The notes below the pieces were generated by a model. That model searched no databases. It was not told where the DNA came from and saw only the letters and a program-made list of their open reading frames with translations. A DNA stretch of 64,000 nt, taken from NCBI GenBank assembly GCA_964507565.1, contig CAZDPV010000002.1, forward strand, positions 24,879 through 88,878, given 5' to 3'. This DNA comes from an uncultured Clostridium sp. GTDB taxonomy: Bacteria; Bacillota; Clostridia; TANB77; CAG-508. Shown here piece after piece: positions 1 through 53,826 of this stretch. Each line of letters opens with the position of its first letter. The stretch's first letter is position 1. The position numbers were made by a program, and so were the translations under genes.

Positions 1-3000
1 AAAAAAGAAATAAACGGATATGCAGAAATAGAATATGAAGATAATGAAATAGTAAATATCTATAATCAAGAAATAACTTATCAAACAATATCTTCAAAAG
101 CATATTTAGAAATTCCAAATGGAATAAAAATAAATTTATCAAATAAAGTTATTAGTCAAAACGGCGAAAATAAAATGAGTTTAAATAATATGGTAATAGA
201 TTCAGAAGATAATGTTACAATAACTGATTTAGAAGAGCTTCAGAAAAAAGAAAATACGATATCTGAAAATTCAACTAATGAAAACAACACATCTTTAGGA
301 ACAGGAAGTGTTACTCAAGGTCCTACAACAGTAATAAATAACCAAACATCAACTTCTATAACAGCAGGGAATGTAGGAGATTCAAAAACAGACTCAGAAG
401 AAACGGTAGATGAAACTAAAACTGTAATTGCTCCAACATATAAAGTAACAAAATTTGAAACAACATCAACTGGAATAAAAGCAACAATTGCGGTAAATGA
501 TGAAGAATCACTACTAACATCAGATAGCAAAATTAAAGTAATAGATGGTGAAACAGGAAAGTTAGTTTATGAAAATACGGAAAGCTTAGGAGTATATAGC
601 ATAGATGTTGACATATCTACACTTTCTCCAAATACAGAGTACACATTAGAAGTTGAATCAAGCTATACTGTTGATTCAATAAGCTATACAAAGAATTTTG
701 TATACAAGGTATTCAAAACTTTACCCATTGGATTAGGAATTACAAAAGATGTTTATACTTCTGATAGCTTAGGAATAAATGTAGTTTTTGAAAGTGAATC
801 AGATGTTAAAGAAGTAGAGGTTGCACTACTTAACAATAAAGGTGAAACAATAAAAACTCAAAAGGTTTATAATAAAGGTAAGACTGAAAACACAAGCAAC
901 GTGGAATTTACACAATTAGAATCAAATACAGAATACACAGTAGAATTACTTAATGCAATATATAATGGACAAGTTATATCAAATGGCTTCGACATAACTA
1001 AAAATTGCAAAACACTAAAGGAAAAACCACAAATTAGTAATCCTGAATTTGAAATAGACAAAAGAAATGGCAAATTTAACCTGGATTTAAAAAACTCAAT
1101 TGACAAAGATAGTGGAATTCAGGAATATAGATTTGAAGTATATGATACAAGACAATCTGCTGCAAAAACACCAATAATGTCATTATCAACAAATGGAACA
1201 CAAACAAGCTTAAAGGTTGATAACGATAAAATATTTAGAAATGTAGCATATATTTTCAAAGTTATTGCAATATTCAATGATAATGAAAAAATCCATGAAT
1301 ACGAAAGCGAATTTAGTGATATTATGCAATTAGATGGAACTGAATTTCCAACAATATCATTCGAAAAGAAAGAGGTTACGTACGAAAGAATCGAAGGGAC
1401 AATAATAGTTGAAGACAAAGGAAACGCAATCAGCCTAAAAAATGGAAATAAATTTACCGTAATCTATAATGACTCGGTTGGAGGAAAAAATGAGTCATTT
1501 ACATCAGAGGGAAGTCTTAAAATTCCAGTATCAGTAAATAATTTAAGAGCAAACGAGACTTACAAATTTTCAGTATATACAACAGTAGATTTACAAGATG
1601 GCAATGATCCAATTAAAGAATGCTTTATAGGTTCAGTAATTGTAAAAACAGAATTACCTAAAAATCTAGTAGCAAATTTTAAAACTAATAAACAAAATAC
1701 AAAAAGCACTTTTGATGTAACGTTTCAACTAGCAAAGGAAAATCAAAGCCAAACTGATTTAGAATCACAGACTCTTACAGGAGTTACATTTAGTATTTAT
1801 CCAGGACAAACAACTGATGGAAAATTGCCAACTGGAACTCCAAAGCGAACTGTTAAGATTGTGGATAGCGATGTTTCAGCATATTCAAGCGAAATAAAAA
1901 CAAATTATTATGACCAAAGTAAATCAATTAATCCAACGTTTTTTGGGTCACAAAACAATGATTTTAAGGACAAATATTATACACTTGTTGTTTCAAAGGC
2001 TTACGACTATACAGATTATCAAAATGCCTTACCAATAATAAATAATGTTTACACAATTGAAACAAATGGATATATGCCTGACCTACCAGGGGACGTTAAT
2101 GATGCACTGCAAGTCAACGTAATTAGAAACAGAGATTCTAGTTCAATAAGAGAAGAATTGGATGCAAGCACAATTGTGGGATATACCGTAAAAGCAAGTT
2201 ATGATAATTCCGATTACTATGCAAAAAAAATAATATATAAAGCGTATAATGCAATATCAAAAGCTTTAATATCAACTAAAGAAGTGAGCATGGACAAAAC
2301 ATTAGAAATTCCTAGTGTAACATTTGATGTAAAAGATGGAATAGATTCAGCTAGTACTGATGATGAAAATCTAACAAGAGGAAATACTTATTACTTTACT
2401 TATGAAGCAGAACTTGACTTAAATGGCGATGGAGAAGCAGAAACTCATTATCCATATAATAGCAACGGACAAGCAGTAACACTTAAATCAAAAGATGTTA
2501 TTCCAGAAAAGCAAGAGGCAAAAATAGAAATGTTTCCAATAATATCAACAAAAAACACATATTCATTTGGAATTAAAATAATAGATATTGACAAATCAAT
2601 AAATACAAATACAGCTAGTGCAAAGATAGATGATAAATTAGTAGATACAGAAGTATTAGACAAGACATCAAATCAATATGGACAAATAACATTTAAAAAC
2701 CTGTCAAAAGGAAATTTGGAAATATATATAACACAAAAAACAATCAATACTGAAGACTCAAAAAAAATATATTTAATTTATCAATACTTTGAAGGAATAA
2801 AAAGCATTAGTGATATTAAGTTTAAAAAGAGCTTAGAATCAAACAAATTACTTATAACATTGATAGATTCTGGAGAACAAATCAACAATATAATAGCGGT
2901 AAAAGTTACTCTTGAATCAACAGATGGAACGGTAAAAATAGAAAAAGATATGTTAAAACCAACAAATAATATTATAAGCATAAATTTAAATGACATTAGT

Positions 3001-4755
3001 GATTTACTCAATAAAGAAACTAAAGTATCAGTAAAAGCTTACTATGATAGTGGAATAACTGGATATAATTTAGAACAAAATCACTTTGTAACATATCAAA
3101 AACCATATCTGTCTGGGGAAACCGTATACTATTATAAGATAGATGGTAAAAAACAATTTGTTGATACTCCAGATATACTAGGAAATATATATATAAGTAC
3201 AAGAACAGAAAACTCTTTGCAAATAGTTAATGCTATGACAACAAGTTTAACAACAACAATAACACTTGATATTACAAAAAACGGATTCACATATAATGGA
3301 AATGTTATTCTACCAAAACAAGTAAATGAGCAGGAAATCGTTTCAGAGGATGGCGATAACATTATTAAATTCGATGTAATAATAACAGGAATAACTCTAA
3401 AAGATAATAAGGGAAATCTAACAATATCATCAGAGCTAGACAACGTTAGTTTTGAAGCATCTCTTTTAACAAAAGAATCTGTTAAGGATGATTTGATATA
3501 TATAGAGATATATCAAACTGACGAAAATGGAAAAACACAATACTTAACTAATACTATTTCAAAGTTAACAAGTGATTTTAACAGTAAAATTACAATAGAT
3601 GGTTTAAAACCAAAAACATATTATTTTCTTAAATTTAGAGCAAATTTTGACACATCAGATGGTGTTTCATCAAAATACTTATATGATATAGATTACGAGG
3701 TAGAGGGGAAGCAATATTATTTTTCAACGCTTGCAAATGTTGGAATAACAAATATAAGTGTAAAATATAATCCAGTTGATTATGATAACAAAACAATTGA
3801 CATAACATACAACCTTGATAAAATAATGGGATATAAGAAGATAGCATATAAGATAGAAAAATATAATGAAGTTACAAAATTATATGAAGAAACAGGAATA
3901 AAAATATCAAACGATGTACTATTTAAAAATGAAATGACTAAAAAAATAGTATGCAACCCAACTGGAGCAGATACAAAAATTATATTCGGAAAAAAATACA
4001 AAATTATAATTGCACCATTAACAGAATATACATATAATGGAACTACTACAACCTTAGATCTAGGCACAAAAGAATATGAATTTGAGCTTCAAGAACTTTC
4101 TAATCCAATTATTGCTTTAAAAGGTTCAAGATCGGGAGAAAGTAGTGCATATTTTAAAGTAACAATATATGATAATGATAAAATAATAGTTGGTGGAAAT
4201 TATTCTGTACAGATTTTTGAAAATGGTTCTATAGATATTACACCAGAGGAGTACGTAAATCAAAAATATTCAATAAATACATTTAATAAAACATTCTCTA
4301 TCTCAAACGTTAATAAAACAAGTAAATATAAAATACTAATAAAATGCAAAATAGATAAAAAGAACAATGGAAATGAAATAACAGACTTTGAAAAAAGTTA
4401 TGAATTACCATCTGTAAATGAATATGGAATTTCAGTAGGAAACGTTTCAACAGCAACAAACTTGAATGGTGGAATTTATAAAATTGATTTAATTTTTAAT
4501 AGTTCATACAAACTAAACGAAATAGACATGGTGAAATATTCAATTTATAATGTAAGCGGATATTCGCAAAGTAATGAGGAAAACTTTATACCAACTGAAA
4601 TAAATTCAGAAGATGGTGGTTTATACTATAAATTTACATTAAATAATAATATGAATGATTGTGATCAGGGAACTTATTATATTGAATTACAATTTTATAA
4701 AGATGGAAATTTAGTTGACGAAACAACAGTTGAACATGTTTATTTAAAAGAATAA
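1..4755 (+). CDS. Giant surface protein with tandem Fn3-like repeats. It is 5'-partial: the frame is open from nt 1, so the protein is longer than the 1526 aa seen here.
   Basis: There is no stop codon in frame 1 from nt 1 up to the ATG at 175, so the ORF continues upstream of the window. Repeated motifs resemble fibronectin-III/Ig-like modules (LSPNTEYTLEV, LESNTEYTVELL, LRANETYKFSVYT, LKPKTYYFLKFRA). Composition is T/S/N/K-rich. Confidence 0.6.
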   Translation, partial: KKEINGYAEIEYEDNEIVNIYNQEITYQTISSKAYLEIPNGIKINLSNKVISQNGENKMSLNNMVIDSEDNVTITDLEELQKKENTISENSTNENNTSLGTGSVTQGPTTVINNQTSTSITAGNVGDSKTDSEETVDETKTVIAPTYKVTKFETTSTGIKATIAVNDEESLLTSDSKIKVIDGETGKLVYENTESLGVYSIDVDISTLSPNTEYTLEVESSYTVDSISYTKNFVYKVFKTLPIGLGITKDVYTSDSLGINVVFESESDVKEVEVALLNNKGETIKTQKVYNKGKTENTSNVEFTQLESNTEYTVELLNAIYNGQVISNGFDITKNCKTLKEKPQISNPEFEIDKRNGKFNLDLKNSIDKDSGIQEYRFEVYDTRQSAAKTPIMSLSTNGTQTSLKVDNDKIFRNVAYIFKVIAIFNDNEKIHEYESEFSDIMQLDGTEFPTISFEKKEVTYERIEGTIIVEDKGNAISLKNGNKFTVIYNDSVGGKNESFTSEGSLKIPVSVNNLRANETYKFSVYTTVDLQDGNDPIKECFIGSVIVKTELPKNLVANFKTNKQNTKSTFDVTFQLAKENQSQTDLESQTLTGVTFSIYPGQTTDGKLPTGTPKRTVKIVDSDVSAYSSEIKTNYYDQSKSINPTFFGSQNNDFKDKYYTLVVSKAYDYTDYQNALPIINNVYTIETNGYMPDLPGDVNDALQVNVIRNRDSSSIREELDASTIVGYTVKASYDNSDYYAKKIIYKAYNAISKALISTKEVSMDKTLEIPSVTFDVKDGIDSASTDDENLTRGNTYYFTYEAELDLNGDGEAETHYPYNSNGQAVTLKSKDVIPEKQEAKIEMFPIISTKNTYSFGIKIIDIDKSINTNTASAKIDDKLVDTEVLDKTSNQYGQITFKNLSKGNLEIYITQKTINTEDSKKIYLIYQYFEGIKSISDIKFKKSLESNKLLITLIDSGEQINNIIAVKVTLESTDGTVKIEKDMLKPTNNIISINLNDISDLLNKETKVSVKAYYDSGITGYNLEQNHFVTYQKPYLSGETVYYYKIDGKKQFVDTPDILGNIYISTRTENSLQIVNAMTTSLTTTITLDITKNGFTYNGNVILPKQVNEQEIVSEDGDNIIKFDVIITGITLKDNKGNLTISSELDNVSFEASLLTKESVKDDLIYIEIYQTDENGKTQYLTNTISKLTSDFNSKITIDGLKPKTYYFLKFRANFDTSDGVSSKYLYDIDYEVEGKQYYFSTLANVGITNISVKYNPVDYDNKTIDITYNLDKIMGYKKIAYKIEKYNEVTKLYEETGIKISNDVLFKNEMTKKIVCNPTGADTKIIFGKKYKIIIAPLTEYTYNGTTTTLDLGTKEYEFELQELSNPIIALKGSRSGESSAYFKVTIYDNDKIIVGGNYSVQIFENGSIDITPEEYVNQKYSINTFNKTFSISNVNKTSKYKILIKCKIDKKNNGNEITDFEKSYELPSVNEYGISVGNVSTATNLNGGIYKIDLIFNSSYKLNEIDMVKYSIYNVSGYSQSNEENFIPTEINSEDGGLYYKFTLNNNMNDCDQGTYYIELQFYKDGNLVDETTVEHVYLKE

Positions 4756-4775: not shown

Positions 4776-6445
<1,670 letters not shown>

Positions 6446-6468: not shown

Positions 6469-7320
6469 ATGCTATTTTACAGGAGAAAAAATATGATAAA
6501 ACTAATTATACCAGCAATAATAATGGAATTCTTAATGTTTGGATTTTCTATATATATTTTTGATAATCTCTCAAAAAGGATAAATAACAGAGTAAAAAAA
6601 TATTTTATAGACAAACTTCAAGATTATAATTATTTAATTGAAGAAAAAGCTAAAGAGCTTGAAAATTTGAGAAATTTGGTAGATAATGAAAATAATAAAA
6701 TAAAAAAACTTCAAGAAACGCCAGAAAGCACATTCTCAAAAACTATAGAGAGCAAGTTAAAGAAAATGAAGAAATTTAAAGAGGGAAAAATCAAACTAGT
6801 AGAAGAAGAAGATATAATTTATGATATACCAACTCCTGCATATAGGGAAGAGTCATTCTTTAAAAATTATAAAGAGCTAAAAAAGAACTTTAACGTGGAT
6901 ACACAAAATGTATTAGAGAAATTTGTTAAGGAACATAAGAATACAAAACAAGAAGATGAAGCATATAAAATTCTTACAGAATTCAGGTCTAAATTTAATC
7001 AAAATACAATTTATGATTGTTTAACATTAAATTCTAATAATCAATACAATTTAATGAAAGAAGTAATGTCCTCAAAAGAAAAAAACACAATTAACTTTGA
7101 GGAAAAATTTATGCAGGACAAGAAATTTACAATATTAAAATTATTAAATTATGTTGACGAGCTGATAAAAAAATACGATCCAACAATATATGTATATGTC
7201 GGATCAGACAGTGTTGATTATAATTATATTGAAAAGAACATCAAGACATATTTTTATAAAAACATGTCCGAAGGAATAATTATAAACTATAAAGGAAAAA
7301 TGTATGACTATAGTATATAG
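6469..7320 (+). CDS. F-type ATPase b-subunit-like protein (N-terminal TM plus long charged coiled coil), possibly a b/delta-like fusion
   Basis: One N-terminal TM helix (IKLIIPAIIMEFLMFGFSIYIF) is followed by a K/E-rich helical region. The gene sits at the atpF/atpH position between the c-like and alpha-like genes. At 283 aa it is longer than a typical b subunit. Confidence 0.4.
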   Translation: MLFYRRKNMIKLIIPAIIMEFLMFGFSIYIFDNLSKRINNRVKKYFIDKLQDYNYLIEEKAKELENLRNLVDNENNKIKKLQETPESTFSKTIESKLKKMKKFKEGKIKLVEEEDIIYDIPTPAYREESFFKNYKELKKNFNVDTQNVLEKFVKEHKNTKQEDEAYKILTEFRSKFNQNTIYDCLTLNSNNQYNLMKEVMSSKEKNTINFEEKFMQDKKFTILKLLNYVDELIKKYDPTIYVYVGSDSVDYNYIEKNIKTYFYKNMSEGIIINYKGKMYDYSI

Positions 7321-7346: not shown

Positions 7347-8679
7347 ATGGGTACACATATTGAGGATTTATTAAATAAAAAAATAGAGCAAATTAAGACA
7401 GAAGAAAATGTTTTTGATTCTGGAAATGTTACAAAAATAAAAGACTATATAATTGAAGTTTCCGGATTGGAAAACGTTAGGTTTTTTGAAAAAGTAATAA
7501 TCCAAGGTAAGGGAATGGGATATGTAAATCAAATAAATGAAAATTCCGTAATAATTGCATTGGTAAAGCAATATGCCCCAATCCAAATTGGAGATATTGT
7601 AAATTCAACAGGAGAATTATTTAAAGCAATATTTGCAAAAGAAGCAATGGGAAGAATAACAGATTTATTTGGCGTCGATTTATTAACAGGAAGAGCTTTT
7701 GAAAACTTTGAATATATAAATATAGAAAACAAAACTACTCCAATAATGGACAGGCGAGAAGTAAACAGACCTCTTAAAACTGGAATATCAGGAATAGACT
7801 TAATATACCCAATAGGAAAAGGACAAAGACAGTTAATAATAGGCGATAAAAAAACTGGAAAAACGCAAATAGCTCTTGACATAATTGCAAATCAAGCAAA
7901 TGTAAGGCGAGAACAAGGAGACAATATAGTTTGCATATACATAGCGGTAGGAAAAACAAAAAAAGAGATTAAGAATATTTATAATGAACTACTTAGAAGA
8001 AATGCATTATCATATACAATGATTTGTGCTGCAACTAATGATGATAAGCCACCTGTATTAAGTCTTATTCCTTATGTAGGATTATCTATTGCAGAAGAAT
8101 ATATGAAAATGAAAAAGGATGTAATTGTAATAATAGATGATTTAAAAAAACATGCACAAGCATATAGAGAGATTAGCTTAATATCGAATAAAACACCAGG
8201 AAGAGACGCATATCCATCTGATATTTTCTATACGCATGCTCGTTTGTTAGAGAAAGGTTGCCAATATAAAGACGGAGGTTCAATTACAATTTTACCTATA
8301 ATGGAAACAAAAGGTGGAGATATAACAGATTATATATCAACCAATATTATTTCAATAACTGATGGACAGCTTGTATTATCAGAAAAAAACTTTAGCGCAG
8401 GATTTAAACCGGCAATTGACTATGGAGTATCAGTATCTAGATTAGGTGGAGCAGTTCAAGAGGAAAGTGTAAAGAAATTAGGAGCAACAGTAAGAAGAAA
8501 ATTCTTAAGCTACTTGGAAATGAAAGAAGTATATGAGCTTGCGAATATGGATGAAATGAGTCCAGAATTAAGACAAAAAATGAAAGAAGGAGAAGCTATA
8601 CAAGAAGCATTAAAACAAGATAAATTTTCTCCTCTGTCAAATGCGGAAATAATTGATAAATTTAATATGTTAGGTGAGG

Positions 8680-8696
<17 letters not shown>
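7347..8696 (+). CDS. F1 ATPase alpha-subunit-like protein (divergent, 449 aa)
   Basis: The Walker A region GISGIDLIYPIGKGQRQLIIGDKKTGKTQIALDIIANQ aligns with AtpA [29 protein letters not shown]. The C-terminal segment YPSDIFYTHARLLE...ISITDGQLVLSEKNFSAGFKPAIDYGVSVSRLGGAVQ is co-linear with bovine/bacterial alpha. The Arg-finger position (GIRPAINVG) reads GFKPAIDYG, so Lys replaces Arg at codon 354 (nt 8406-8408). Confidence 0.8.
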
Positions 8697-10828
<2,132 letters not shown>

Positions 10829-10865: not shown

Positions 10866-11159
<294 letters not shown>

Positions 11160-11174
11160 AAGAGGAGAGAATTT

Positions 11175-11744
11175 ATGATACAAACAATAATGTATAATGT
11201 TAGTAAAAGTGCAATTCCAATGTTAATATACTTAGGAATAATAGTATTTACTGGATTCCTCATAAATTTCTCAACAAAAAAATTTGATATTCATAAAAAA
11301 ACAGTTATGTTTGGAGGAATGTTAGTTAAACTTCATAGAAGGCAAATAATCTCAATAACTGCAGTTATGATAAGAACATTTCTAATAATATATGCATCTA
11401 TAAACTTTAAAGAAAATTTGGTATTGTACTTTACGATGATTATTATGGCAGATATAGTTTATATTTTTATGAATCCCAAAAAAATAGTATTTGAAATTAT
11501 AAATACTTCTGCACAGGGAATTTTAATATATATAATAAGTCTACTAAGCACATATCGAGTTGAAATTAGTGATGAACTATACGTAAAACTAATGCAAACA
11601 TTGCTTATTATTTTTATAATTGTGTATGCAATATACTTTTTATTTAAAAATTTTGAAGAAATAATATCAAAAAAATATAAAATAACAAAAAGAGAGAAAA
11701 AAGACCAAGAATTGAAGGGAGAATTAAATGAAAAAAATAGCTAA
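11175..11744 (+). CDS. Polytopic membrane protein (about 4-5 TM) of unknown function; possible stator/membrane component of the F1-like module
   Basis: Several hydrophobic segments are present. It lies immediately downstream of the epsilon-like gene with an RBS. It has no recognisable a-subunit LRLFGN/Arg motif. Confidence 0.4.
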   Translation: MIQTIMYNVSKSAIPMLIYLGIIVFTGFLINFSTKKFDIHKKTVMFGGMLVKLHRRQIISITAVMIRTFLIIYASINFKENLVLYFTMIIMADIVYIFMNPKKIVFEIINTSAQGILIYIISLLSTYRVEISDELYVKLMQTLLIIFIIVYAIYFLFKNFEEIISKKYKITKREKKDQELKGELNEKNS

Positions 11745-12459
11745 TAAAACATCACAAAATGCTTTAATAAAAGATATTGTCATAAAAATAGTATTAGTAT
11801 TATTACTTCTAGATGTAATATTTATTGCAATATACTATATCAAACAGCTAAATACAACAGAAGTAGAAAATCATAGCTTCTATCAATACTTAGGTGGTCA
11901 AAAGCAAAGTTATGCAGGAAGTATTAAAATAAGCAAAAACGGTGATATAACAGAATTAAAATGTAACGATATTGAAATCGAATTAGACTCAACACCAGTG
12001 TATTATTCAGATATAGAAAATACCGCAATATTACCAGAACAAATGTCAATTATTTATCCAAAAGAAAATGGAAAAACATATAGAACAACAAGATTCTCTA
12101 TATGCTCAATAAAAGACAAATCTGTGTATATTGAAATGAGTAAAAGCGAAAAATTAGTGCAAAATGCAATTCTATATGATGGAGATAATTTGTATTTTTT
12201 TATAGAGCAAACAAAGCTAATGATTGGTAATAAAGAGTATGATATTTCACCATTATCTTATGTATATGCAAAATACAATGAATATGTAGAAATTTATGAT
12301 AAGAAAAGTGATACATTTCAAGTGGTAGAATGTGCAAAAAAGAATGTAACAGCAAGCAATGGCTCATATATAATAGACTTAAACACAGGCAGTTTAAAAA
12401 ATGGAGAAAAAGAACAGCTATTACTTAAAAAGTTTAATTCATTAGAAATTTTAAAATAG
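11728..12459 (+). CDS. Membrane-anchored protein (N-terminal TM, extracytoplasmic domain), unknown function
   Basis: It overlaps the previous stop, suggesting translational coupling. TM helix is IVIKIVLVLLLLDVIFIAIYYI. Confidence 0.4.
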   Translation: MKKIANKTSQNALIKDIVIKIVLVLLLLDVIFIAIYYIKQLNTTEVENHSFYQYLGGQKQSYAGSIKISKNGDITELKCNDIEIELDSTPVYYSDIENTAILPEQMSIIYPKENGKTYRTTRFSICSIKDKSVYIEMSKSEKLVQNAILYDGDNLYFFIEQTKLMIGNKEYDISPLSYVYAKYNEYVEIYDKKSDTFQVVECAKKNVTASNGSYIIDLNTGSLKNGEKEQLLLKKFNSLEILK

Positions 12460-12505: not shown

Positions 12506-15500
12506 ATGAATAAAAATGAAATAAAAGATAAACCAAAATTACATAAAAAAGGTAAAATAGCAAATCTAATAAGAAGCAATATACCAATGTTTCTAATAGT
12601 ATCAATTGGGCTACTAATAATATTATTAGTGGCACTTTATTATATATTTATGCACTTTGCTCCAGTATATGTAATCGAAAAAAGTGGATATGCAGTAAAG
12701 GATAAATTAATATATCAAGGATTACAGACATCAAATTTTAGTAGTGCAGAAAAACGAGTTAGCCTATTAGAAATTTCAGAAGAAGATACTCTATACAAAA
12801 AAATAAACAGTTATTATATTGGTGGAAATAGTAAAAAAGCTATAAACTTAAATTATCCAATATATTTAGAAGATTCAGCAATGCTAAATTTAAGTAAAGA
12901 AATGAATTTGATCACAAATTCTTTTGAAGAGGTAGGAGGATATCCAAATTTTACAATAATAGATGGAAAGATGTATAATGAAAAAGATTTAACAAGAGCA
13001 GATAGCAATGAATACATATTTCTTAAAAATAAAGAGAATTTGTTTGTAAATATTAAAGAAATATATATAAAGACTTCTACAAATGAATATAAAATACCAA
13101 TAAATAGTATTATAAATTTTAACAAAGAATTTGTTAGTTATTATAAATTACAAGACAAAGATAACTTAGAATATAGTGTAATACAAGATATAGACTTAAG
13201 TAGTATAATTACAATAAATAATGAAAGTGATAATTATGAAAATATATTAAAGAAACTTAAAATTATACAAGAAGAAAAGAAACAGGATGTAATTGTAAAT
13301 GAAATAGAAGAACCTGTTAAAAATGAAACACCCAAAAATGAAATAACGGAAAATAAAGAAGAAGAAAAAACGGACGATGAAGAAAAAAAATATATTGCTC
13401 CAGAAGTAAAATGTACAGACTTTACTGCAAATGTTTATACTGCAAAGACGAATTTATATATAAGTGACCCAAGCGGAACGATTCAAAAAGCAGTAGAATT
13501 TACAATATACAAAGATGGTAAGGTATATCAAAGAGCTCAAACTTTAGTAGGAGGAAACATTTTAATAAGTGGACTAATGCCAGATTCAAAATATTCAATA
13601 ACAGGAGAGTACACATACAAAAAAGAATCAGGAGAAAAAGTAATAAAAACATTTTATGAAGGTACGTTTAATACCAATAGATTAGAAACACTAGAAACTA
13701 TAAATTTGGAATTTGAGAATGGAGAAATATTTCCAACAAAGATTGAAATAAAAGATTTAAAAATAAATAATGATTTATATAATGACGAAGTTTTATATGG
13801 AATATCAAAAATAGTATTGGATACAGGAAAATCTAAATATAATTTAAGAGCTTCACAAATAAAAGAACTACTAAATGGAAATAAAATAACATATCAAACC
13901 GACCAAAATATAACAAGTAATAGTAATATAAAATATAAATTCCATATATATGATAAATTTGAAAATGAATTATCAGTCTCAAATAGTGAAGGGGAAACTA
14001 TAACTTCAAAAAGAGCTCCAACTTTAGTATTAAATGCAAAAAGTCAAAATATAACAGAAGTAAATGTAGGAATTAAAGTTAATAACAAGGATAACGTTAT
14101 AATAGAAAACTATAAATATGCTATATACGATGGGGAAGGGAAAGAAGTAGAAAGCCAAAACTTAAAATCATTACCAAGCGAAATTAAGATAAGAGATCTA
14201 GACCCTAATAAATTCTATGTAATAAAAATATTTGGAGATTATGATTTGGAAAACAATCAGGGAAAAACATATAATGTTGAACTGGGGGAAGCAAAATTTA
14301 CGACGTTACCAATATCTTCACTAGGATATGTATACATTGATGATAACTTAAAAGATATAAAAAGTAACCAAACAACAATTTCTATAAAAATAAATACTGA
14401 AAAAACTGATACTAGATTGGTAGAAATATTATCACAATTTAATATAAAAATAAAATCAAACAAAGATAATAAAGATACTCAAGACTATAACTTATCAAAC
14501 GAAGACCTTCTCAAAATAAAGCAGGGAAATGAATTTGAATACATATTCCAAAATCTAAATTCTAACACTAAATATTCTATTGAAGTAGAAACGAGGGCAA
14601 AACAAGGAGCTTCAACGGAAAAAGTAGGTGTAAATTTCGAGATAACGGACTTTATTACACTTAAGGAATCTGCTAGTGTACAAATTAAAAATCAATTTGT
14701 TACAGGAGAAATAATAGATTTTGATGCAAAAATAGTAGATAAAGATGAAGCTGTTTTAAATAATTCTGTACGTATGGAATTAAGGGACGAAATGGATAAG
14801 CTACTATCAATAGAAGATATGAAAACAAATGAAGAATATAAAAGAGAGACATTCAATAAATTGAGTAGTGGAAAAACATATAAAATATTATTTTACGCTG
14901 ATGAGTATAATGAGGGAAGTAAAGATGATACATACAAATCAAACTATCTTCTTAAAAAAATACAAGTTGTTACTGAGGAGGGGATAAGTGGAAATTTAAG
15001 ACTAAGTGAACTTAATAAAAAAGAAAACGGAAAAAATCTAATTGATATGGCTTCAGAAGTAAAATGGTATGTATATCCAAATTTTGACACAGGAGACTGG
15101 TATGGAAAAGAGTATAATGAAGTAACAGAAACATTGTCAATTGGAGGACATGGAAACAGTAGAAGATGTGTATATGACTTAACAGATTATTCAGGACAAA
15201 CTGTAACGATGTCTTTTAAGGCAAAGCGTATTACTAAGAACTCAAGCACTCTATATATTCAAAATGCAAGAACAGATAAAAATAGAACAATAGTTAGTGA
15301 CATAAATGAAACAGAATGGAAAAGTTATTCATATACCATAAAACTTGATGAAAGTGGATACCTTGGCTTTTATGTACAAGGTGGTGATGGAGTTCAAATA
15401 AAAGAATTACAGGTTGAACTGGGATCTAAGCAAACTCCATATCAAAAATATAAATATAATATGAGAACTAGATTACAAGTAAATTTAATTGACAAAAGAA

Positions 15501-18500
15501 ATGAAATAGAGTCGAACGAATATTTCATAAAAGAATATAAAAACAATGAGCTTATTGAAACTAAAAACTTTCAAGAAATAGATGAGAGCAACATAGTAAA
15601 AGATGTAATAAAAGAATTTTGGGTAGATGAAGAAGGAGAATACAAGTTTCAGTTAGTAATAAAGATAAGAAACAGAGAATATATACTAGATACACAAGAA
15701 ATTAAAACTGAAAAAGGAAAAGAAATAAAAGGAATTTATCAATATTCGGATTTTAAGTTGATCCAGCCAAATGGGAACTATACAGTATTTTGTGATTTAG
15801 ATTTTACAGTAGAAAGTAAACAATCATGTTCTTTTGGATATACATGGGACGAAAGATTTTCTTTTAATGGAAGCATAGATTTTAACGGACACAAAATTAT
15901 AAAAGATGCGTATGGAAATAATAGAAGTTGGCCTATATTCCCTAGAATAGGAAAAAACGGATATCTAAAAAATATAGTTATGGATGTAAGCCTAAGAAAT
16001 AATGTAGAAGTAAGAGAATTCTATGGATTATTTTATGTAAACTCTGGAACAATAGAAAATCTAGAAGTTAATTTATTAGAAAGTACAAAATATGGAAATA
16101 TACAAACTCATCTAATAGGTTTAACAAACTATGGAACAATAAATAAATTTGTTATAAATTCAAAGGTACCATACTATGGAAATTGTAGAGTAACACTGGG
16201 ATTGTATAACAATTATGGGACAATTAAAAATGGATACTTATATGGCAGTCCAATTGATGTATTTGGAGATATACCAGAAGAAATTGGATATAGATATGCA
16301 GCTGGACTGGTATTACAATCATATGGAAGTGGACAAATATCAAATGTTTATAGTTTAATAAATGTTAATGTGGAAGACCAAACTACTACTGGAAGAGAAA
16401 ATGTATCTAATATAGTAGAACATAATTACGCACACATAGATAATATTTACTCAGTAGGAACCGGAAATACAATTGAAATGTCACATGGACCATCAGTTGC
16501 ATATAATAATGGAAAAATAAATAATAACTATTACTTTGCAGATAAAGTATTTAATAACTCATATAATAATAAAACTACCAAACTTGCATTATTAGATGAA
16601 CAATTTCAAAATCAAATACTAAATAGTGAAGATGCATTTAATATAGATGATCTTATTTCAAGAGGATATTATCCACAAGTTGTTATGCCAGATTGTATGC
16701 CACGACAGGAATATATCAACCTACCTAAAGTAGATGATGCAGACTTACCAGATATAATTTCAACTAACATAATACAACAAGGCTCAGATACGGTAAAAGT
16801 TAGATTTAGTATAAATAATCCATCTGGAGAAAAAATTCAAAACATAAGTGTACAAAACCTACAAGTAAGAATAGAATCACAAAATTATGCAGATGGAAAA
16901 AGTGAAGTAATAGCAACACTACTAGAACCTACAAAGTATGTATCAACATATAATGTTCTAAGTATAACTACAAAAGGTGCATTCAATATACCATATACTA
17001 GAAAATATGCAAGCAATGAAAGAATAATAAATGTGGATTTATATAGGCAGATAAATTCTATATCAGATTGGAACAATATATCAAACCATACAGATGAAAA
17101 CTTTATGCTACTAACAGATTTAGATTTTAAAAATGAAGGAAGTTCTATATCAATAACTAAAACCTATTATGGAAAATTAGAAGGACAGGGTCACACCATT
17201 AAAAATATAAAGTCAAATAGAGGACTTCTTGCAACATTTACTGGACAAATAAATAATTTATTTATTGAAAATTATTATAATGAATCAGCATCAACAGACT
17301 ATACTGGAGTAATAGAATATTTAAATGGCGGAATAGTAAATAATGTACACATTAAAGGATTAGAGATAGACGTAAATCAAAAAAGAATAGGTGGAACAAT
17401 TACGTGTGGAGGCCTTGTTGGATATACTAATAGTGGCTCAGTAATAAAAAACAGCTCAATTGTAGATGCAACTATTATATCAAATGCAAAACTAGATAAT
17501 GCAAGATTTGGCGGATTAGTAGGATTATCAGACCAACTAGTAATAGATAACTGTTTTGCACAAAATGTAGATATTTCAGCTAATAAAAGTATTTATTATG
17601 AAGGAGTAGGAGGACTAATAGGAAGAGGAACTCCTTGTTACATAACTAATTGCTACTCGACAGGTAAAATTTTTTCAGATGGAGATAGATGTGGAGGAAT
17701 TATCGGAAACAGTAATACAAGCGGAACCCTAACAAATTGCTATAGCTTAGTAAATGTAGATAGTTATGGAGAATATATAGGAGGAATTATTGGATATAAT
17801 CTTACACCAACTTCATGCTTATCTATTGGAAATATTTATACTAGACAAGATACAAAAAACATATCTAGAACATCTGGATATCAAATAAGTAAAAAGATAA
17901 ACTATGCTTATGAGAATCAACTAATAAATGGATATATAAATGAAAATGAATTAGATTCAAATGTACTAAGTAGAGACGAAATATTTAAAAAATCCAATTA
18001 TTTAAGTGAGCTTAAATGGGATGATAATTACAATTATGATGGATTATCTAATTATATACTTCCAAAACTATATTACACAGATAAAAAAGAACTACTACCT
18101 AATCAAGAAGATAATACAATTTCAATAGACAGAGAAATAAAAGTAGAAGAGGTTCAAGCAGAGAAAACAGACGTTAATACTGTTGGTGTAAGAGTTGTAG
18201 TAAATAATCCAGGAAACAAACAAATTAAAAATGTAATAATTGATGACATGAATTCAATAATCTCAAAATCAATTTTTGATAATGGAAAAACTTATATAGA
18301 CTTAGTAACAACGCCTAAAAGATATTATGACAGCTATAAAATCTCAAGCATTGTATATGATGACAATGGAGAAGAAAAATCAAAAGAAACAGAAAATAGA
18401 ATTGATGTTAAATTTTATAAAGAAATATATAACTACAATGACTGGCAATCAATAGAAAAAGATACATTTCAAAATTATAAACTTATGAATGACATTGACT

Positions 18501-21500
18501 TTGAAGGAAAAAGTGAAGTAAATTATAATGTTACAATGGCTAGATTCGAAGCGGTAGGTGATAATAAAACATTAAAAAATATTACATTAGCAGAAATTGA
18601 GCAACAATCTGGACTAATAAACAAAATTTCCATAAATTTAGAAAATATAAATTTCGAAAATATTAACATTACATCTACTAAGTCTGGAAATGCAGTAGGA
18701 ATAATTAGAAAAGCAAGTGGAAATGTAACAAACATCAATTTTAAAGACATAACAATAACCGCAAAAAAAGTTTCTTATGTGGGATGCTTTGCTGTGGTAG
18801 ATTCCGTAACGAAAGATGTTGGACTAGAACACATTACATGCTATGGAATACACTACGTTGGTGGATATGCAGGTTCTGTCTCGAATTTAGGAAAAAATAT
18901 AAATGGAAACAACATCACGATTATTTCAACAGGAAATTATGTCGGTGGAATAGTTGGACTAAATGGTAATGGAATAGAGCCAAATCATTATAACATAAAT
19001 ATAAGTAATTCAAATGTTACAGGATATGATGTTGTTGGTGGACTTGCTGGACAATCTCCTAATATAATGGGTGCGAAAGCTACTTTTGTAACAGTAAATG
19101 GACATAGCAATGTTGGAGGAATGTATGGATATATATATGACTCTTGGGATGGATATAGCAATATTGTAACGGATTCAAATATAGCAGGTTCAGGTTCAAA
19201 TATTGGTGGATTAGCAGGACAATCAACAGACTGGTGGGGAGGAATTAGAACTGTTAAAAACAGTACTGTTACGGGTAAAAATTCAGGATCAAACAACGTG
19301 GGAGGAATCTTTGGATACTCAACAGGAGCATGTAATGCTATGAATACAATAGATGTAACTGTTACAACATTAGGAAGCAATGTAGGTGGAATTATAGGAA
19401 ACTGGAATAGATCGAATTCAACATCTGGATACTGGAGTACAGATAATGTAACGCTAACAGGATATTCAAATGTAGGAGGTTTGGTTGGTTATCATAAAGC
19501 AGGAAGAATAAATTATGCATATAGTAATGCAAAAGTAACAGCAACAGGGTATGCAGCAGGAGGAATATCTGGATATTTGGCCAATACTGGAATGACAGCA
19601 ATAACAAATGATACAGCAATAGTACAAGTTTATGTAGCTAAATCTACTGTAATTGCTCCAATAAATGCAGGAGGAATATTTGGAAAAGTTGAAACAGACT
19701 TTTATATGCCAGTATCTTTATATACTAAAATATTTGTAGAAGCCAACGTAAAATCAAATTATGACACGACATCTTCAATGATTGTGGGTTCAGACAAGAC
19801 AATGAATAGTCAATTATCAAAAATATACATCTACCAATACAGCAAGATAAATGAAAATTACATTACAAAATATAACGACAATATAGAAGCAAATAATTTC
19901 TTAAATGAAAGTAATTTAAAGCTAGCAAAAACATATTCTTCAACACTAGGATTTAATACAGGGGTATTTAATACGAATATGTTATCAAGTAATATTTATC
20001 CAACAATAAAATATGGTAGAGATGGAAATACAATGGAGCAAAGAGGAATTTCATTGCCAATGGATCCAGTAGACGTAGTTATAAATTTAGAAGAAATACA
20101 AACAATGGATTTGAAAGAAGATGAATATCCACTTATGGTAGCATCTAATTTCTTAATTAACTTAAATACTGAAAACGACCAAAAAGTGAATAACTTACCA
20201 ACGTATAGTGCATATCCAATAAGTGTAAATGAGTTTAATATAGATTTTAGTAAAATAGACGAAAATGCTTTCTTTGAATGCTATGTAAATGGTAGAAGTG
20301 CTGTAAAACAATATATAAAAAATAAAACATATACATTTAAATATGACTTTAAAACTAATATTGAAATCAATATAGGAAAAGATGATGTGGTAAAAACATT
20401 AACAATTATACCAAGTGATATAAATAAACGAACAAGTTTAAAGGGAGAAAGCATTGCATATATAAATGAAAATAAATTATATGTAAATAATGAGGAAAAA
20501 AGTGAACAATCTGTAAACTTATATGATTCCCAAGCTTTAACGAACAATGGAAAGATATACAACATATTAACTGGTGAGTATACAAATAGCAATGAAAAAA
20601 CAAATACTACAAGCATAGATGAAGAGAGCCAAAACAATAATGTTCAAAACACATTAGCATTAGAAGAAACTAAAGCGTTAGAAAAATACCAATATGATGG
20701 AAATAATATTGAAAGCTTTGGAACGTACAGCATAGTAAATGGCAATAGAAAGTCACAAATTTATATAGTAAAAAACAACAAGTTATCAGTGATAGATAGC
20801 TCATTAGATATCAAAATTTCAAACCAAGTAATTGATTTCTACAATGGAAAAGAATATCAATCAGTACTAAAAAAAGATGGAAAGATAAACAATTTAAAAG
20901 AAAGTCTAAAATATCCTAAAAATTTTAATAATAGTACAATAAAAGAAATAACAATGAATCAAGAAGAAGAAAGAAAAGAAGTAATGGTACTATATGAAAA
21001 CGGAAAGGTCATAGTATTCAATTACATGGATGGAAATGAAAAATACAATAATAATGTGAAAGAAGAAGTAAGTTTATTAGACTTTTTAAAAGAAAATTTG
21101 TTTAATGCAAATATGATATATGAAGACTTATCAGAAGAATATGAACAATGCAAACAAGTACAAGAAAAGCTAGAAGAAACTCCAATAAGTGAGCTAAACA
21201 TAAATTCGAGTTCAAATAATAGTTCATCTAATGCAACATCAAGTGGATCAAACAATAATAAAACAAATAAATACACTACAATGTACAATGCAACAAGCAA
21301 AAAATATGAAGTATATAATGAAAATGAACTATTAACAAGCAAAGAAGAGGTACCAGAATCAGAAACTACTAAGATTGAAAAAACAGAATTATTATCTAAA
21401 TATTATCTAAGTGGAATAAAAGAAAAATCAAATTCTAATAAAAATAATGGTACGGTTTGGATAATATCAACAATAATTGGAATTTTAATAATTCTCATAA

Positions 21501-21562
21501 TATTATACAAAGTAAACAACAGAAAAAGAATAGCAATTAAAAAAAATACAAATAAAAAATAA
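12506..21562 (+). CDS. Giant (3018 aa) cell-surface protein anchored by a TM helix at each end. It has Fn3-like repeats, a jelly-roll/CBM-like module and a long GLUG-type right-handed beta-helix repeat region.
   Basis: N-terminal TM is IPMFLIVSIGLLIILLVALYYIFM. C-terminal TM is WIISTIIGILIILIILY followed by NRKRIAIKK. Fn3-like motifs LMPDSKYSITGEYTY, LDPNKFYVIKIFGDYD, LNSNTKYSIEVETRA. Repeated GLUG-like units (NCYSTGKI...GGIIGNSN..GTLTNCYS, VGGLAGQS, VGGIFGYS, VGGIIGNW, VGGLVGYH, AGGISGY) span about nt 17400-19700. Confidence 0.6.
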   Translation: MNKNEIKDKPKLHKKGKIANLIRSNIPMFLIVSIGLLIILLVALYYIFMHFAPVYVIEKSGYAVKDKLIYQGLQTSNFSSAEKRVSLLEISEEDTLYKKINSYYIGGNSKKAINLNYPIYLEDSAMLNLSKEMNLITNSFEEVGGYPNFTIIDGKMYNEKDLTRADSNEYIFLKNKENLFVNIKEIYIKTSTNEYKIPINSIINFNKEFVSYYKLQDKDNLEYSVIQDIDLSSIITINNESDNYENILKKLKIIQEEKKQDVIVNEIEEPVKNETPKNEITENKEEEKTDDEEKKYIAPEVKCTDFTANVYTAKTNLYISDPSGTIQKAVEFTIYKDGKVYQRAQTLVGGNILISGLMPDSKYSITGEYTYKKESGEKVIKTFYEGTFNTNRLETLETINLEFENGEIFPTKIEIKDLKINNDLYNDEVLYGISKIVLDTGKSKYNLRASQIKELLNGNKITYQTDQNITSNSNIKYKFHIYDKFENELSVSNSEGETITSKRAPTLVLNAKSQNITEVNVGIKVNNKDNVIIENYKYAIYDGEGKEVESQNLKSLPSEIKIRDLDPNKFYVIKIFGDYDLENNQGKTYNVELGEAKFTTLPISSLGYVYIDDNLKDIKSNQTTISIKINTEKTDTRLVEILSQFNIKIKSNKDNKDTQDYNLSNEDLLKIKQGNEFEYIFQNLNSNTKYSIEVETRAKQGASTEKVGVNFEITDFITLKESASVQIKNQFVTGEIIDFDAKIVDKDEAVLNNSVRMELRDEMDKLLSIEDMKTNEEYKRETFNKLSSGKTYKILFYADEYNEGSKDDTYKSNYLLKKIQVVTEEGISGNLRLSELNKKENGKNLIDMASEVKWYVYPNFDTGDWYGKEYNEVTETLSIGGHGNSRRCVYDLTDYSGQTVTMSFKAKRITKNSSTLYIQNARTDKNRTIVSDINETEWKSYSYTIKLDESGYLGFYVQGGDGVQIKELQVELGSKQTPYQKYKYNMRTRLQVNLIDKRNEIESNEYFIKEYKNNELIETKNFQEIDESNIVKDVIKEFWVDEEGEYKFQLVIKIRNREYILDTQEIKTEKGKEIKGIYQYSDFKLIQPNGNYTVFCDLDFTVESKQSCSFGYTWDERFSFNGSIDFNGHKIIKDAYGNNRSWPIFPRIGKNGYLKNIVMDVSLRNNVEVREFYGLFYVNSGTIENLEVNLLESTKYGNIQTHLIGLTNYGTINKFVINSKVPYYGNCRVTLGLYNNYGTIKNGYLYGSPIDVFGDIPEEIGYRYAAGLVLQSYGSGQISNVYSLINVNVEDQTTTGRENVSNIVEHNYAHIDNIYSVGTGNTIEMSHGPSVAYNNGKINNNYYFADKVFNNSYNNKTTKLALLDEQFQNQILNSEDAFNIDDLISRGYYPQVVMPDCMPRQEYINLPKVDDADLPDIISTNIIQQGSDTVKVRFSINNPSGEKIQNISVQNLQVRIESQNYADGKSEVIATLLEPTKYVSTYNVLSITTKGAFNIPYTRKYASNERIINVDLYRQINSISDWNNISNHTDENFMLLTDLDFKNEGSSISITKTYYGKLEGQGHTIKNIKSNRGLLATFTGQINNLFIENYYNESASTDYTGVIEYLNGGIVNNVHIKGLEIDVNQKRIGGTITCGGLVGYTNSGSVIKNSSIVDATIISNAKLDNARFGGLVGLSDQLVIDNCFAQNVDISANKSIYYEGVGGLIGRGTPCYITNCYSTGKIFSDGDRCGGIIGNSNTSGTLTNCYSLVNVDSYGEYIGGIIGYNLTPTSCLSIGNIYTRQDTKNISRTSGYQISKKINYAYENQLINGYINENELDSNVLSRDEIFKKSNYLSELKWDDNYNYDGLSNYILPKLYYTDKKELLPNQEDNTISIDREIKVEEVQAEKTDVNTVGVRVVVNNPGNKQIKNVIIDDMNSIISKSIFDNGKTYIDLVTTPKRYYDSYKISSIVYDDNGEEKSKETENRIDVKFYKEIYNYNDWQSIEKDTFQNYKLMNDIDFEGKSEVNYNVTMARFEAVGDNKTLKNITLAEIEQQSGLINKISINLENINFENINITSTKSGNAVGIIRKASGNVTNINFKDITITAKKVSYVGCFAVVDSVTKDVGLEHITCYGIHYVGGYAGSVSNLGKNINGNNITIISTGNYVGGIVGLNGNGIEPNHYNINISNSNVTGYDVVGGLAGQSPNIMGAKATFVTVNGHSNVGGMYGYIYDSWDGYSNIVTDSNIAGSGSNIGGLAGQSTDWWGGIRTVKNSTVTGKNSGSNNVGGIFGYSTGACNAMNTIDVTVTTLGSNVGGIIGNWNRSNSTSGYWSTDNVTLTGYSNVGGLVGYHKAGRINYAYSNAKVTATGYAAGGISGYLANTGMTAITNDTAIVQVYVAKSTVIAPINAGGIFGKVETDFYMPVSLYTKIFVEANVKSNYDTTSSMIVGSDKTMNSQLSKIYIYQYSKINENYITKYNDNIEANNFLNESNLKLAKTYSSTLGFNTGVFNTNMLSSNIYPTIKYGRDGNTMEQRGISLPMDPVDVVINLEEIQTMDLKEDEYPLMVASNFLINLNTENDQKVNNLPTYSAYPISVNEFNIDFSKIDENAFFECYVNGRSAVKQYIKNKTYTFKYDFKTNIEINIGKDDVVKTLTIIPSDINKRTSLKGESIAYINENKLYVNNEEKSEQSVNLYDSQALTNNGKIYNILTGEYTNSNEKTNTTSIDEESQNNNVQNTLALEETKALEKYQYDGNNIESFGTYSIVNGNRKSQIYIVKNNKLSVIDSSLDIKISNQVIDFYNGKEYQSVLKKDGKINNLKESLKYPKNFNNSTIKEITMNQEEERKEVMVLYENGKVIVFNYMDGNEKYNNNVKEEVSLLDFLKENLFNANMIYEDLSEEYEQCKQVQEKLEETPISELNINSSSNNSSSNATSSGSNNNKTNKYTTMYNATSKKYEVYNENELLTSKEEVPESETTKIEKTELLSKYYLSGIKEKSNSNKNNGTVWIISTIIGILIILIILYKVNNRKRIAIKKNTNKK

Positions 21563-21579
21563 AGAATATATAAAAAACG

Positions 21580-21608
21580 TTGACATAAGCAACAAAAAAA
21601 TGTATAAT
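21580..21608 (+). promoter_or_regulatory. Consensus sigma-A promoter for the thrS T-box leader (TTGACA, 17 nt spacer, TATAAT)
   Basis: ttgaca at 21580-85, a 17-nt spacer, tataat at 21603-08. Confidence 0.6.
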
Positions 21609-50874: not shown

Positions 50875-50980
50875 CAAAAAAATGAAATTAAGGAGGCACA
50901 GTATGTTATTTTTGATGATATAAAATATCAACTAAAATAAAAGCCATATACTTGTGCCTTATTTAATGGAAAGGGGTAAG

Positions 50981-53820: not shown

Positions 53821-53826
53821 TTTAAT

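Follow-up and report, generated by a model that had tools for sequence, protein, structure and literature searches.

A predicted double-anchored giant protein linked to an atypical F-type ATPase module in uncultured gut Clostridia

Introduction

What is a protein of 3,018 residues, apparently held in the membrane at both ends, doing directly downstream of genes for an F1-like ATPase? The question is raised by a 64,000-nucleotide (nt) stretch of DNA from an uncultured Clostridium sp. (GenBank assembly GCA_964507565.1, contig CAZDPV010000002.1, positions 24,879 to 88,878), which is referred to here as the window and in which the gene for this protein, here called giant B, occupies positions 12506 to 21562 of the forward strand. 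An earlier note, made by a model from the letters of the window, had described a giant ectodomain tethered at both termini and had read it, given the F1-like motor genes upstream, as a force-transducing "leg," a fiber, or a substrate-binding element. Our analysis partly supports that interpretation: the architecture of the protein and its link to the ATPase are solid, and the leg is an idea borrowed entirely from the analogy with Mycoplasma mobile and the MIB-MIP system (PMC11864180, PMC12994834).

Giant B and its terminal anchors

Giant B is encoded by a single uninterrupted open reading frame (ORF) of 3018 codons, and a ribosome-binding site (RBS), AGGAGAA, lies 7 nt 5' of its ATG. It is not an assembly artefact, since eight independent metagenome contigs in public databases yield exactly the same protein. 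The gene and its terminal features are as follows (aa, amino acids; TM, transmembrane segment).

12506..21562, + strand: giant B gene, 3018-aa protein with two predicted anchors (ORF, RBS, homologues)
12506..12583, + strand: predicted basic cytoplasmic N-tail, aa 1-26, net charge +6
12584..12658, + strand: TM1, probable uncleaved signal anchor, aa 27-51 (Kyte-Doolittle, family motif)
21449..21511, + strand: TM2, aa 2982-3002 (Kyte-Doolittle, AlphaFold2 helix, family conservation)
21512..21559, + strand: predicted basic cytoplasmic C-tail, aa 3003-3018, net charge +7 (charge count)

A 19-residue Kyte-Doolittle scan, in which segments above 1.5 were counted, finds exactly two hydrophobic segments in the 3018 residues, one near each end, just as the earlier note had it. 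The first, TM1 (aa ~26-51, IPMFLIVSIGLLIILLVALYYIFMHF; peak, 3.02), comes after MNKNEIKDKPKLHKKGKIANLIRSN; the second, TM2 (aa ~2982-3002, GTVWIISTIIGILIILIILY; 2.75), is followed by KVNNRKRIAIKKNTNKK, and an AlphaFold2 (AF2) model of aa 2550-3018 has a single long helix over aa 2982-3017. The basic segments that had been placed before TM1 and after TM2 are both present, with net charges of +6 in aa 1-26 versus +1 just after TM1 and of +7 in the C-tail versus +3 just before TM2. Under the positive-inside rule, this bias fits an N-in/C-in arrangement with an external loop of ~2930 residues.

Neither of the usual Firmicute surface anchors could be found, in agreement with what had been claimed. 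LPXTG, NPXTG, and [LV]PX[TA]G motifs are all absent across the entire protein (regular-expression search), no SLH domain was found with Pfam (E≤1), and no sorting-signal family was recognized with NCBIfam models (E≤0.01) or Pfam; the C terminus carries its hydrophobic segment and basic tail without an LPXTG-type motif. Both terminal segments are present in 112 of 120 close homologues, and the 7 without the C-terminal segment break off within the repeats.

The nature of TM1 was read from the family alignment. The region before it (n-region) has a median length of 18 aa and a median net charge of +5, and the apolar run has a median length of 22 aa (range, 17 to 26). At its outer end, the motif Y-[YF]-I-F-L-[RK]-Y-[SA]-P is conserved, with Pro53 in 110 of the 113 sequences. 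Signal peptidase I follows the -3/-1 rule, and Pro at +1 blocks cleavage. There are no small residues at -3/-1 at the C-terminal end of TM1 in the alignment, and the only candidate signal peptidase I site of the family has [RK] at -3 and the invariant Pro at +1. Giant B's N-terminal segment lacks a plausible cleavage site, which argues for an uncleaved segment; TM1 is probably a signal anchor because of the long apolar run, the missing small residues, and the Pro at +1. Anchoring at both ends, as the earlier note envisaged, is favored by the two segments, the charge bias, and their conservation in the family, and the topology itself, the lack of signal-peptide cleavage, and the exposure of the protein at the surface are predictions from sequence rules.

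An atypical F-type ATPase encoded upstream

Giant B is preceded by 10 tightly spaced genes, all on the same strand, which we call the module. F1-like motor genes had been noted here, and Pfam recognizes alpha, gamma, and beta among them. Only 46 nt, with no terminator-like site, separate the last module gene from giant B.

1..4755, + strand: giant A, 3' part (1754 aa in full); the gene begins before the window and the frame is open from nt 1
4776..6182, + strand: 468-aa N-anchored ectoprotein, conserved in the module
6197..6445, + strand: 82-aa c-subunit-like protein without the helix-2 Asp/Glu (Pfam ATP-synt_C)
6469..7320, + strand: 283-aa protein with N-terminal TM, coiled coil, and globular part, candidate peripheral stalk, conserved
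7347..8696, + strand: F1 alpha-like subunit, 449 aa (Pfam, 5.5e-71)
8674..9477, + strand: F1 gamma-like subunit (Pfam ATP-synt, 1.3e-27)
9470..10828, + strand: F1 beta-like catalytic subunit, 452 aa, Walker A and Walker B intact
10866..11159, + strand: 97-aa protein in the epsilon position, no family match
11175..11744, + strand: 189-aa multi-TM protein, candidate stator/X0 component, not recognizably subunit a
11728..12459, + strand: 243-aa N-anchored ectoprotein directly 5' of giant B, conserved in the module

The full gene of giant A and its N terminus were read on a related locus (L071). Giant A has an N-terminal TM, is Fn3-like, and has no C-terminal TM; its N terminus, a short MKK plus an 18-aa hydrophobic stretch, could be a signal peptide.

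The beta-like subunit is a true F1 beta homologue, as evidenced by its best Protein Data Bank (PDB) match (3.6e-117) and by its match to M. mobile G1 beta (3.4e-96). With Walker A, GERSRE, and Walker B all intact, the module ATPase looks catalytically competent. It stands apart from curated ATPase classes. Beta is barely above the atpD equivalog cutoff (476.9 versus 462.85 bits), and alpha falls below both atpA equivalogs (399.8 versus 484.45 and 429.9 versus 554). Scores also lie far below the cutoffs of the N-ATPase models (alt_F1F0 alpha/beta, 355.7 versus 750.5 and 425.3 versus 752 bits), of the mycoplasma Type 2 G1 models MMOB1660/MMOB1670 (380 versus 600 and 387 versus 850 bits), and of the mycoplasma Type 3 models MSC_0619/MSC_0618 (302 versus 520 and 412 versus 570 bits). 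No MIB/MIP-like genes are present in the module.

The 82-aa c-like protein is the most unusual part of this ATPase. It scores 35.7 bits against an NCBIfam cutoff of 71 and is 65 to 87% identical across organisms of 27% to 53% GC. In an alignment with reference c subunits, the column of the ion-binding carboxylate (D61 in Escherichia coli, E56 in PS3, and E65 in I. tartaricus) holds Ala, Leu, or Thr in 14 of 14 genomes (11 + 3). Since the helix-2 carboxylate is missing, the c-ring should not move H+ or Na+ canonically. A carboxylate-less c subunit of this kind is new; helix 2 without Asp/Glu is seen at 6197-6445 of the window and also in loci L007, L025, L041, L050, and L073-L075.

The rest of a canonical membrane sector could not be recognized. 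Sixteen members of the 189-aa and 283-aa families had no match to ATP-synt_A, ATP-synt_B, or OSCP (subunits a, b, and delta), and NCBIfam recognized no a, b, or delta subunit in the module and had no match for its accessory proteins.

Variants of the ATPase module exist at metagenome loci L082, L112, L138, L145, L149, and L151. Gamma has moved to a position after the 243-aa-like gene in L082 and L112, the c gene lies ahead of giant A in L149, and some variants have only an upstream N-anchored giant of 1700 to 2800 aa. L151 has no giant within 10 kb and has type IV pilin-like genes upstream.

Conserved linkage of the giants to the module

The 10-gene module stands directly 5' of the first giant copy in 15 loci that range from 25-30% to 53% GC, and in 11 of these, from related genomes, it is complete and in the same order. 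Related loci carrying the module were identified by tblastn and ORF maps (L007, L012, L016, L025, L038, L039, L041, L050, L053, L054, and L058), and four distant members of the giant family, P0212 (4067 aa), P0205, P0267, and P0241, were found only with a profile of the N-terminal domain of giant B (N-domain, described below). In all four distant loci, namely, L073, L074, and L075 (50-53% GC) and L076 (30% GC), the same gene series precedes the giant, the contig end in L076 leaving the last three module genes in view. The GC content of L073-L075 indicates very different organisms. In the three distant loci whose contigs include the c gene, c also lacks the carboxylate, and hidden Markov models (HMMs) of the accessory proteins from close relatives recognize the distant counterparts, not every family in every locus. 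That this synteny survives such divergence is a strong argument for module and giant forming a functional unit, and a functional link between giant and ATPase is strongly supported.

The ectodomain of giant B

Between its anchors, giant B is divided as follows (CBM, carbohydrate-binding module; pLDDT, predicted local distance difference test).

12659..13270, + strand: membrane-proximal all-beta N-domain, aa 52-255, the conserved family signature
13271..13390, + strand: acidic/lysine-rich disordered linker, aa 256-295 (pLDDT <50), possible wall-spanning spacer
13391..14971, + strand: five homologous ~100-aa Fn3-like beta-sandwich modules (stalk), aa 296-822
14972..15475, + strand: CBM4-like/jelly-roll-like segment, weak assignment, aa 823-990
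15722..16717, + strand: putative beta-helix-like module 1, aa ~1073-1404, one GLUG-like unit (unit HMM), hypervariable among paralogues
16718..17041, + strand: Ig-like spacer I1, aa 1405-1512 (homology to I2)
17042..18181, + strand: GLUG beta-helix module 2, aa 1513-1892, 5 units (Pfam, unit HMM, 3n6z_A)
18182..18421, + strand: Ig-like spacer I2, aa 1893-1972 (homology to I1)
18422..20155, + strand: GLUG beta-helix module 3, aa 1973-2550, 8-9 units, most variable region
20156..21205, + strand: C-terminal ectodomain, aa 2551-2900, with Fn3-like sandwich, partial beta-propeller-like domain, and helical hairpin
21206..21448, + strand: Ser/Asn-rich linker and small conserved membrane-proximal domain, aa 2901-2981

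The N-domain is a conserved folded domain that begins directly after the TM1 helix, and neither a Pfam family nor a PDB fold relative was found for it. The linker that follows (aa 256-295) differs in length among giant homologues. A first hhalign comparison of the N-domain with the 243-, 468-, and 283-aa ectodomains and giant A aligned only TM segments (probability, <18%), and profile-against-sequence runs against the same proteins gave probabilities of <1%. With an enlarged alignment, the 243-aa ectodomain (11728-12459) and the N-domain (12659-13270) align colinearly over 171 columns, a weak match (E = 0.0023; probability, 12.5%), and the two share YP[IV]Y and Y[IF]F motifs. A shared fold, if true, would suggest that they pack together at the membrane.

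The stalk consists of five modules that are mutually homologous (hhalign probability, 82 to 95%). The Fn3-like modules of the earlier note are to be found here, with Pfam fn3 (PF00041) just below its cutoff (22.6 to 24.7 bits versus 25). Inside the jelly-roll/CBM-like segment it had placed next falls a weak match: a profile of 16 full-length homologues searched against the PDB hits the laminarinase CBM4 1gui_A at E = 0.006 over aa 899-952 (~55 residues), and aa 823-990 have no Pfam match.

The GLUG-type beta-helix content is confirmed. GLUG (PF07581) scores 34.2 bits over the whole protein versus a cutoff of 20.5, and by segment it matches aa 1520-1900 (42.9 bits, 4.3e-11) and aa 2010-2560 (9.8e-6); 9 of 16 giant homologues match it too, and a profile of the giant family matches the solved GLUG beta-helix 3n6z_A (4.6e-7). 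The single stretch of about 25 repeats that had been reported is in fact smaller and broken up. An HMM iterated from GG[LIV][VIA]G units detects only ~13-16 units in three blocks (1 at aa 1259-1286, 5 at 1628-1776, and 8-9 at 2139-2397), and these fall in three separate beta-helix modules split by two Ig-like spacers. Spacers I1 and I2 are homologous (hhalign, 96.6%) and precede modules 2 and 3, respectively. Beta-helix-like module 1 has no Pfam match.

In the C-terminal part, ~200 residues at 20066-20665 (aa 2521-2720) are present in only ~30% of homologues and absent from a 2824-aa clade; the stretch is a lineage-specific insertion.

An identity as an IgA1 protease or M26-type zinc metalloprotease is ruled out, as giant B has no HEXXH motif and no peptidase family in Pfam. 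Giant B as a single sequence had no match in a PDB sequence search, and NCBIfam had no match for it.

A family of giants and its expansion

More than 200 full-length homologues of 2800 to 3200 aa share 36 to 46% identity with giant B. All are unnamed or "hypothetical," and they come from gut metagenomes and from metagenome-assembled genomes labelled Clostridium sp., Clostridiaceae, or Clostridia. When the N-domain profile was searched against 1.84 billion representatives, 398 clusters (at 50% identity) were found, widening the family to 2800 to 4430 aa. The N-domain always lies directly after an N-terminal hydrophobic segment in these clusters, and both ends are hydrophobic in 78 of 80 long distant members. 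Giant B founds an unannotated family of predicted double-anchored giant adhesins, and both the N-domain and the family are new.

An N-terminal alignment, searched against one genome per species, returned 66 loci, many of them sharing a genome. In the complete 1.697-Mb chromosome OZ006978.1, six tandem copies occupy 1.457-1.524 Mb, with some four others in the region 0.466-0.520 Mb; these ~10 copies together take up ~93 kb, or 5.5% of the genome. Loci L003 and L004 had been taken for giants without an ATPase, a reading we dropped once the "2278 + 615 aa" genes upstream in L003 proved to be a further paralogue that is split, which makes the L003 and L004 copies internal members of arrays.

The intact paralogues are 64 to 69% identical overall and strongly mosaic. 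Identity is 84 to 93% in the N-domain, 85 to 91% in the Fn3 stalk, and 73 to 82% in the C-terminal domain versus 33 to 47% in the beta-helix modules (35 to 45% in beta-helix-like module 1 and 33 to 42% in GLUG module 3). The beta-helices are presumably the diversifying, ligand-facing part of the protein, carried on anchors and a stalk that stay constant.

Five copies in OZ006978.1 are intact (3050 to 3181 aa), and the others are split by frameshifts inside GLUG module 3. Four or five of the ~10 paralogues in this HiFi assembly are frameshift-split, all in the GLUG beta-helix region (L020 at ~16612; L031 at ~16693; L037 at ~16800-16867; L034 at ~15160 and ~17240). Two split copies share an identical break and are therefore part of a segmental duplication. 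No obvious homopolymer is present at the frameshift sites inspected, and the split giants may be pseudogenes, may reflect sequencing errors, or may point to a switching mechanism.

Between tandem paralogues lie genes for AAA_14/DUF4143 ATPases and for AbiEi/AbiEii toxin-antitoxin pairs (L004, 8243-9550 and 19548-20962; L007, 19510-20817; L013, 8173-9587), and the arrays may be recombination-prone or island-like.

Genomic context

The window has a GC content of ~27% and carries SpoIVA, a class A penicillin-binding protein (PBP) with PASTA domains, and PcsB-like hydrolases, from which we conclude that the host is a walled, spore-forming Firmicute. Right after the giant B stop, ahead of thrS, lies a perfect -35/-10 consensus promoter (21580-21608), and the ~290-nt thrS leader contains a terminator-like hairpin with a 12-bp stem (21820-21847); no Rfam match to a T-box upstream of thrS was found at the gathering score. 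A 732-aa ORF with no Pfam family (25113-27311) overlaps the end of a class II tRNA-synthetase-like gene (23932-25134). Genes for cell wall hydrolases include a tandem set with PcsB-like coiled coil and M23 peptidase (49675-52189, perhaps also 52250-53449) and a GH25 lysozyme with a peptidoglycan-binding domain (54358-55407). A 6S RNA (39007-39190, 90.7 bits) and three tRNA genes (53745-54087) mark an ordinary chromosomal context.

Proposed mechanism and alternative explanations

How might such a protein and such an ATPase work together? In the arrangement we propose, the giant would span the cytoplasmic membrane near each terminus, in an N-in/C-in orientation. At each end, a small conserved membrane-proximal domain would give way to a disordered linker threading the peptidoglycan, and between the ends would stand the stalk of five Fn3-like modules, the CBM-like domain, and the three GLUG beta-helix modules with their Ig-like spacers, the beta-helices presenting a variable, presumably ligand-binding surface. 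The giant would be the dedicated partner of a module built around a divergent F-type rotary ATPase, the c-ring of which would be unable to bind H+ or Na+ in the usual way. ATP hydrolysis in alpha3beta3 would turn gamma, epsilon, and the c-ring, and the torque would be passed, with no ion pumping, via the 189-aa multi-TM, 243-aa, and 468-aa membrane proteins to the anchored giants. The outcome could be mechanical work at the surface, such as adhesin cycling or pulling, for gliding or for attachment and release. We infer physical contact between giant and ATPase and the whole force-transduction step, the latter by analogy with mycoplasmas. That the giant is a dedicated partner of an ATPase machine with a mechanical role seems to us an even call.

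Several observations weigh against this proposal. The host has a peptidoglycan wall, as evidenced by its PBP and PcsB-like genes, which would make the transfer of force from membrane to surface harder than in the wall-less mycoplasmas. No homology to mycoplasma X0 proteins was found, and on sequence alone the c-ring may have an unconventional ion site. Of the paralogues in a genome, which can number ~10, a single one adjoins the module; the others sit in downstream arrays or elsewhere, most of them far from the ATPase, which speaks against a simple one-to-one coupling.

A reciprocal test bears on the same point. It started from a c-subunit alignment on metagenome contigs and covered 32 loci flanked by 9 kb or more of sequence, a redundant sample in which 11 loci come from one species. 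The expectation that a double-anchored giant follows every ATPase module failed: a giant N-domain lies 6 to 9 kb after the c gene in 10 of the 32 loci, which add to the cases of linkage described above, and the remaining 22 have no double-anchored giant within 10 kb downstream. The ATPase, then, does not strictly need such a giant nearby, and giants missing near these 22 modules could lie elsewhere in those genomes. Since the same 22 loci keep giant A and the 468-aa protein upstream, the core machine appears to be the ATPase with giant A and the small anchored proteins, the double-anchored giant being a frequent, lineage-amplified partner.

Could the giants instead be a passive, variable adhesin or coat, or an antigenic-variation family? 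The ATPase would then serve in export, insertion, assembly, or an unrelated task, with the giant as its cargo or simply its neighbor. We consider this possible, though on the whole doubtful. An expansion to as many as ~10 paralogues in a 1.7-Mb genome, with hypervariable beta-helices on conserved anchors and with mobile or defense-type genes interspersed, is what such a family might look like; GLUG, Fn3, and CBM-like domains are typical of adhesins, and most giant copies and many ATPase modules are not adjacent. Apilactobacillus kunkeei has a comparable tandem set of giants without an ATPase (PMC12863079). A passive coat sits poorly with a first giant copy that stays with the module in lineages from 27% to 53% GC. 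An export role would be peculiar as well, for we know of no F1-type ATPase with gamma, epsilon, and a c-ring that exports proteins. Finally, the conservation of both anchors and of the membrane-proximal domains suggests a partner in the membrane.

An unlikely alternative concerns the anchors: the N-terminal segment could be a long, cleaved Gram-positive signal peptide, leaving a type I membrane protein with a single C-terminal anchor. Signal peptides, too, have a basic n-region ahead of a hydrophobic core, and the N terminus of giant A could be one. The 22-aa median apolar run, the missing small residues at -3/-1, the Pro at +1 in 110 of 113 sequences, and the conserved folded domain that starts straight after the helix all point the other way. 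A cleaved N terminus would alter the topology of the giant and leave our other conclusions as they are.

That giant B is a coincidental neighbor of an ordinary housekeeping F1Fo operon is very improbable: the order c-(b-like)-alpha-gamma-beta-epsilon does resemble atp operons, and beta does pass the atpD cutoff (476.9 versus 462.85), but c has no carboxylate in 14 of 14 genomes, a, b, and delta are not recognizable, alpha and c fall below curated cutoffs, and the cluster conserves four extra anchored ectoproteins along with giant synteny across very distant lineages.

Returning to the mechanical partnership, we tentatively offer a bolder version, which we would not yet expect to hold: a fourth, undescribed F1-like rotary ATPase machine in walled, spore-forming gut Clostridia and unrelated bacteria of higher GC content, in which a non-ion c-ring rotor would act across the peptidoglycan, through novel membrane subunits, on double-tethered giants, the whole being a surface motor that runs on ATP and serves for gliding, for adhesin cycling, or as a winch.

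Comparison with known systems

To our knowledge, no bacteria other than mycoplasmas are known to have recruited F1-like ATPases for driving surface proteins. The mycoplasma enzymes that do so are of Type 2 and Type 3 (PMC11864180, PMC12994834). In M. mobile, where the Type 2 enzyme is paired with Gli521 and Gli349, a path from the rotary ATPase through a membrane sector to the surface adhesin has been proposed (PMC11864180, PMC12994834). In the Type 3 system with MIB-MIP, the ATPase is required for function and the mechanism is thought to be mechanical (PMC12994834), and the Type 3 F1-like X0 ATPase has been described as without equivalent outside mycoplasmas (PMC3369863). In the literature, we found no description of a clostridial F1-like ATPase module or of a rotary ATPase linked to giant proteins.

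The closest parallel is the Type 2 "G1" ATPase of M. mobile with Gli123, Gli349, and Gli521. Both systems combine an extra F1-type alpha/beta/gamma/epsilon set, which in M. mobile, and presumably here, does not serve ATP synthesis, with giant (>3000 aa) membrane-anchored surface proteins. However, the mycoplasma order is 12TM-GliD-gamma-epsilon-2TM-alpha-beta, without c, whereas the order here is c-stalk-alpha-gamma-beta-epsilon; the clostridial module has c-like, b-like, and 5-TM proteins, and its alpha and beta are below the MMOB1660/1670 cutoffs. The 12-TM MMOB1610-like and 2-TM MMOB1650-like subunits are replaced here by the c-like protein and the multi-TM 189-aa protein. In addition, the host here is walled and spore-forming, and its giant genes adjoin the ATPase genes.

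The mycoplasma Type 3 ATPase with MIB-MIP likewise pairs an atypical F-type ATPase with genetically linked surface proteins. Its accessory subunits are different, its MIB-MIP partners are small immunoglobulin-binding and protease proteins rather than giants, and the ATPase described here falls below the MSC_0618/0619 cutoffs. With canonical F1Fo, the module shares alpha, beta, gamma, and c homologues, an atp-operon-like order, and intact catalytic motifs; it differs in a c without Asp/Glu, in having no recognizable a, b, or delta, in its short alpha (449 aa), and in its extra ectoproteins.

Giant B also has relatives in kind among surface proteins. GLUG proteins (PF07581), such as the Bacteroides "putative IgA1 protease" 3n6z, resemble it in that GLUG is above the cutoff and 3n6z_A is matched, but giant B lacks HEXXH and sets three GLUG/beta-helix modules in a double-anchored 3018-aa frame with a novel N-domain. 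Giant1-5 of A. kunkeei are another likeness: a small genome (~1.5-1.7 Mb) devotes ~5-6% of its DNA to tandem giants of 3000 to 8000 aa with conserved ends and variable middles. The A. kunkeei giants take up 6% of a 1.5-Mb genome and have a cleavable signal peptide, no TM, an SH3b-like wall-binding C terminus (DUF5776), and no link to an ATPase (PMC12863079). None of their domains, DUF5776 included, was found in the giant B family proteins searched.

If the coupling of ATPase and giants is true, it would explain a large and entirely unannotated investment, ~5% of a 1.7-Mb genome, in Clostridia that are common in the human, chicken, and rabbit gut though uncultured. It would also provide an independent, possibly more tractable system for studying the conversion of rotary torque into extracellular work. 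On the bolder version given above, the Type 2 and Type 3 ATPases of mycoplasmas would be particular instances of a more general principle rather than an oddity.

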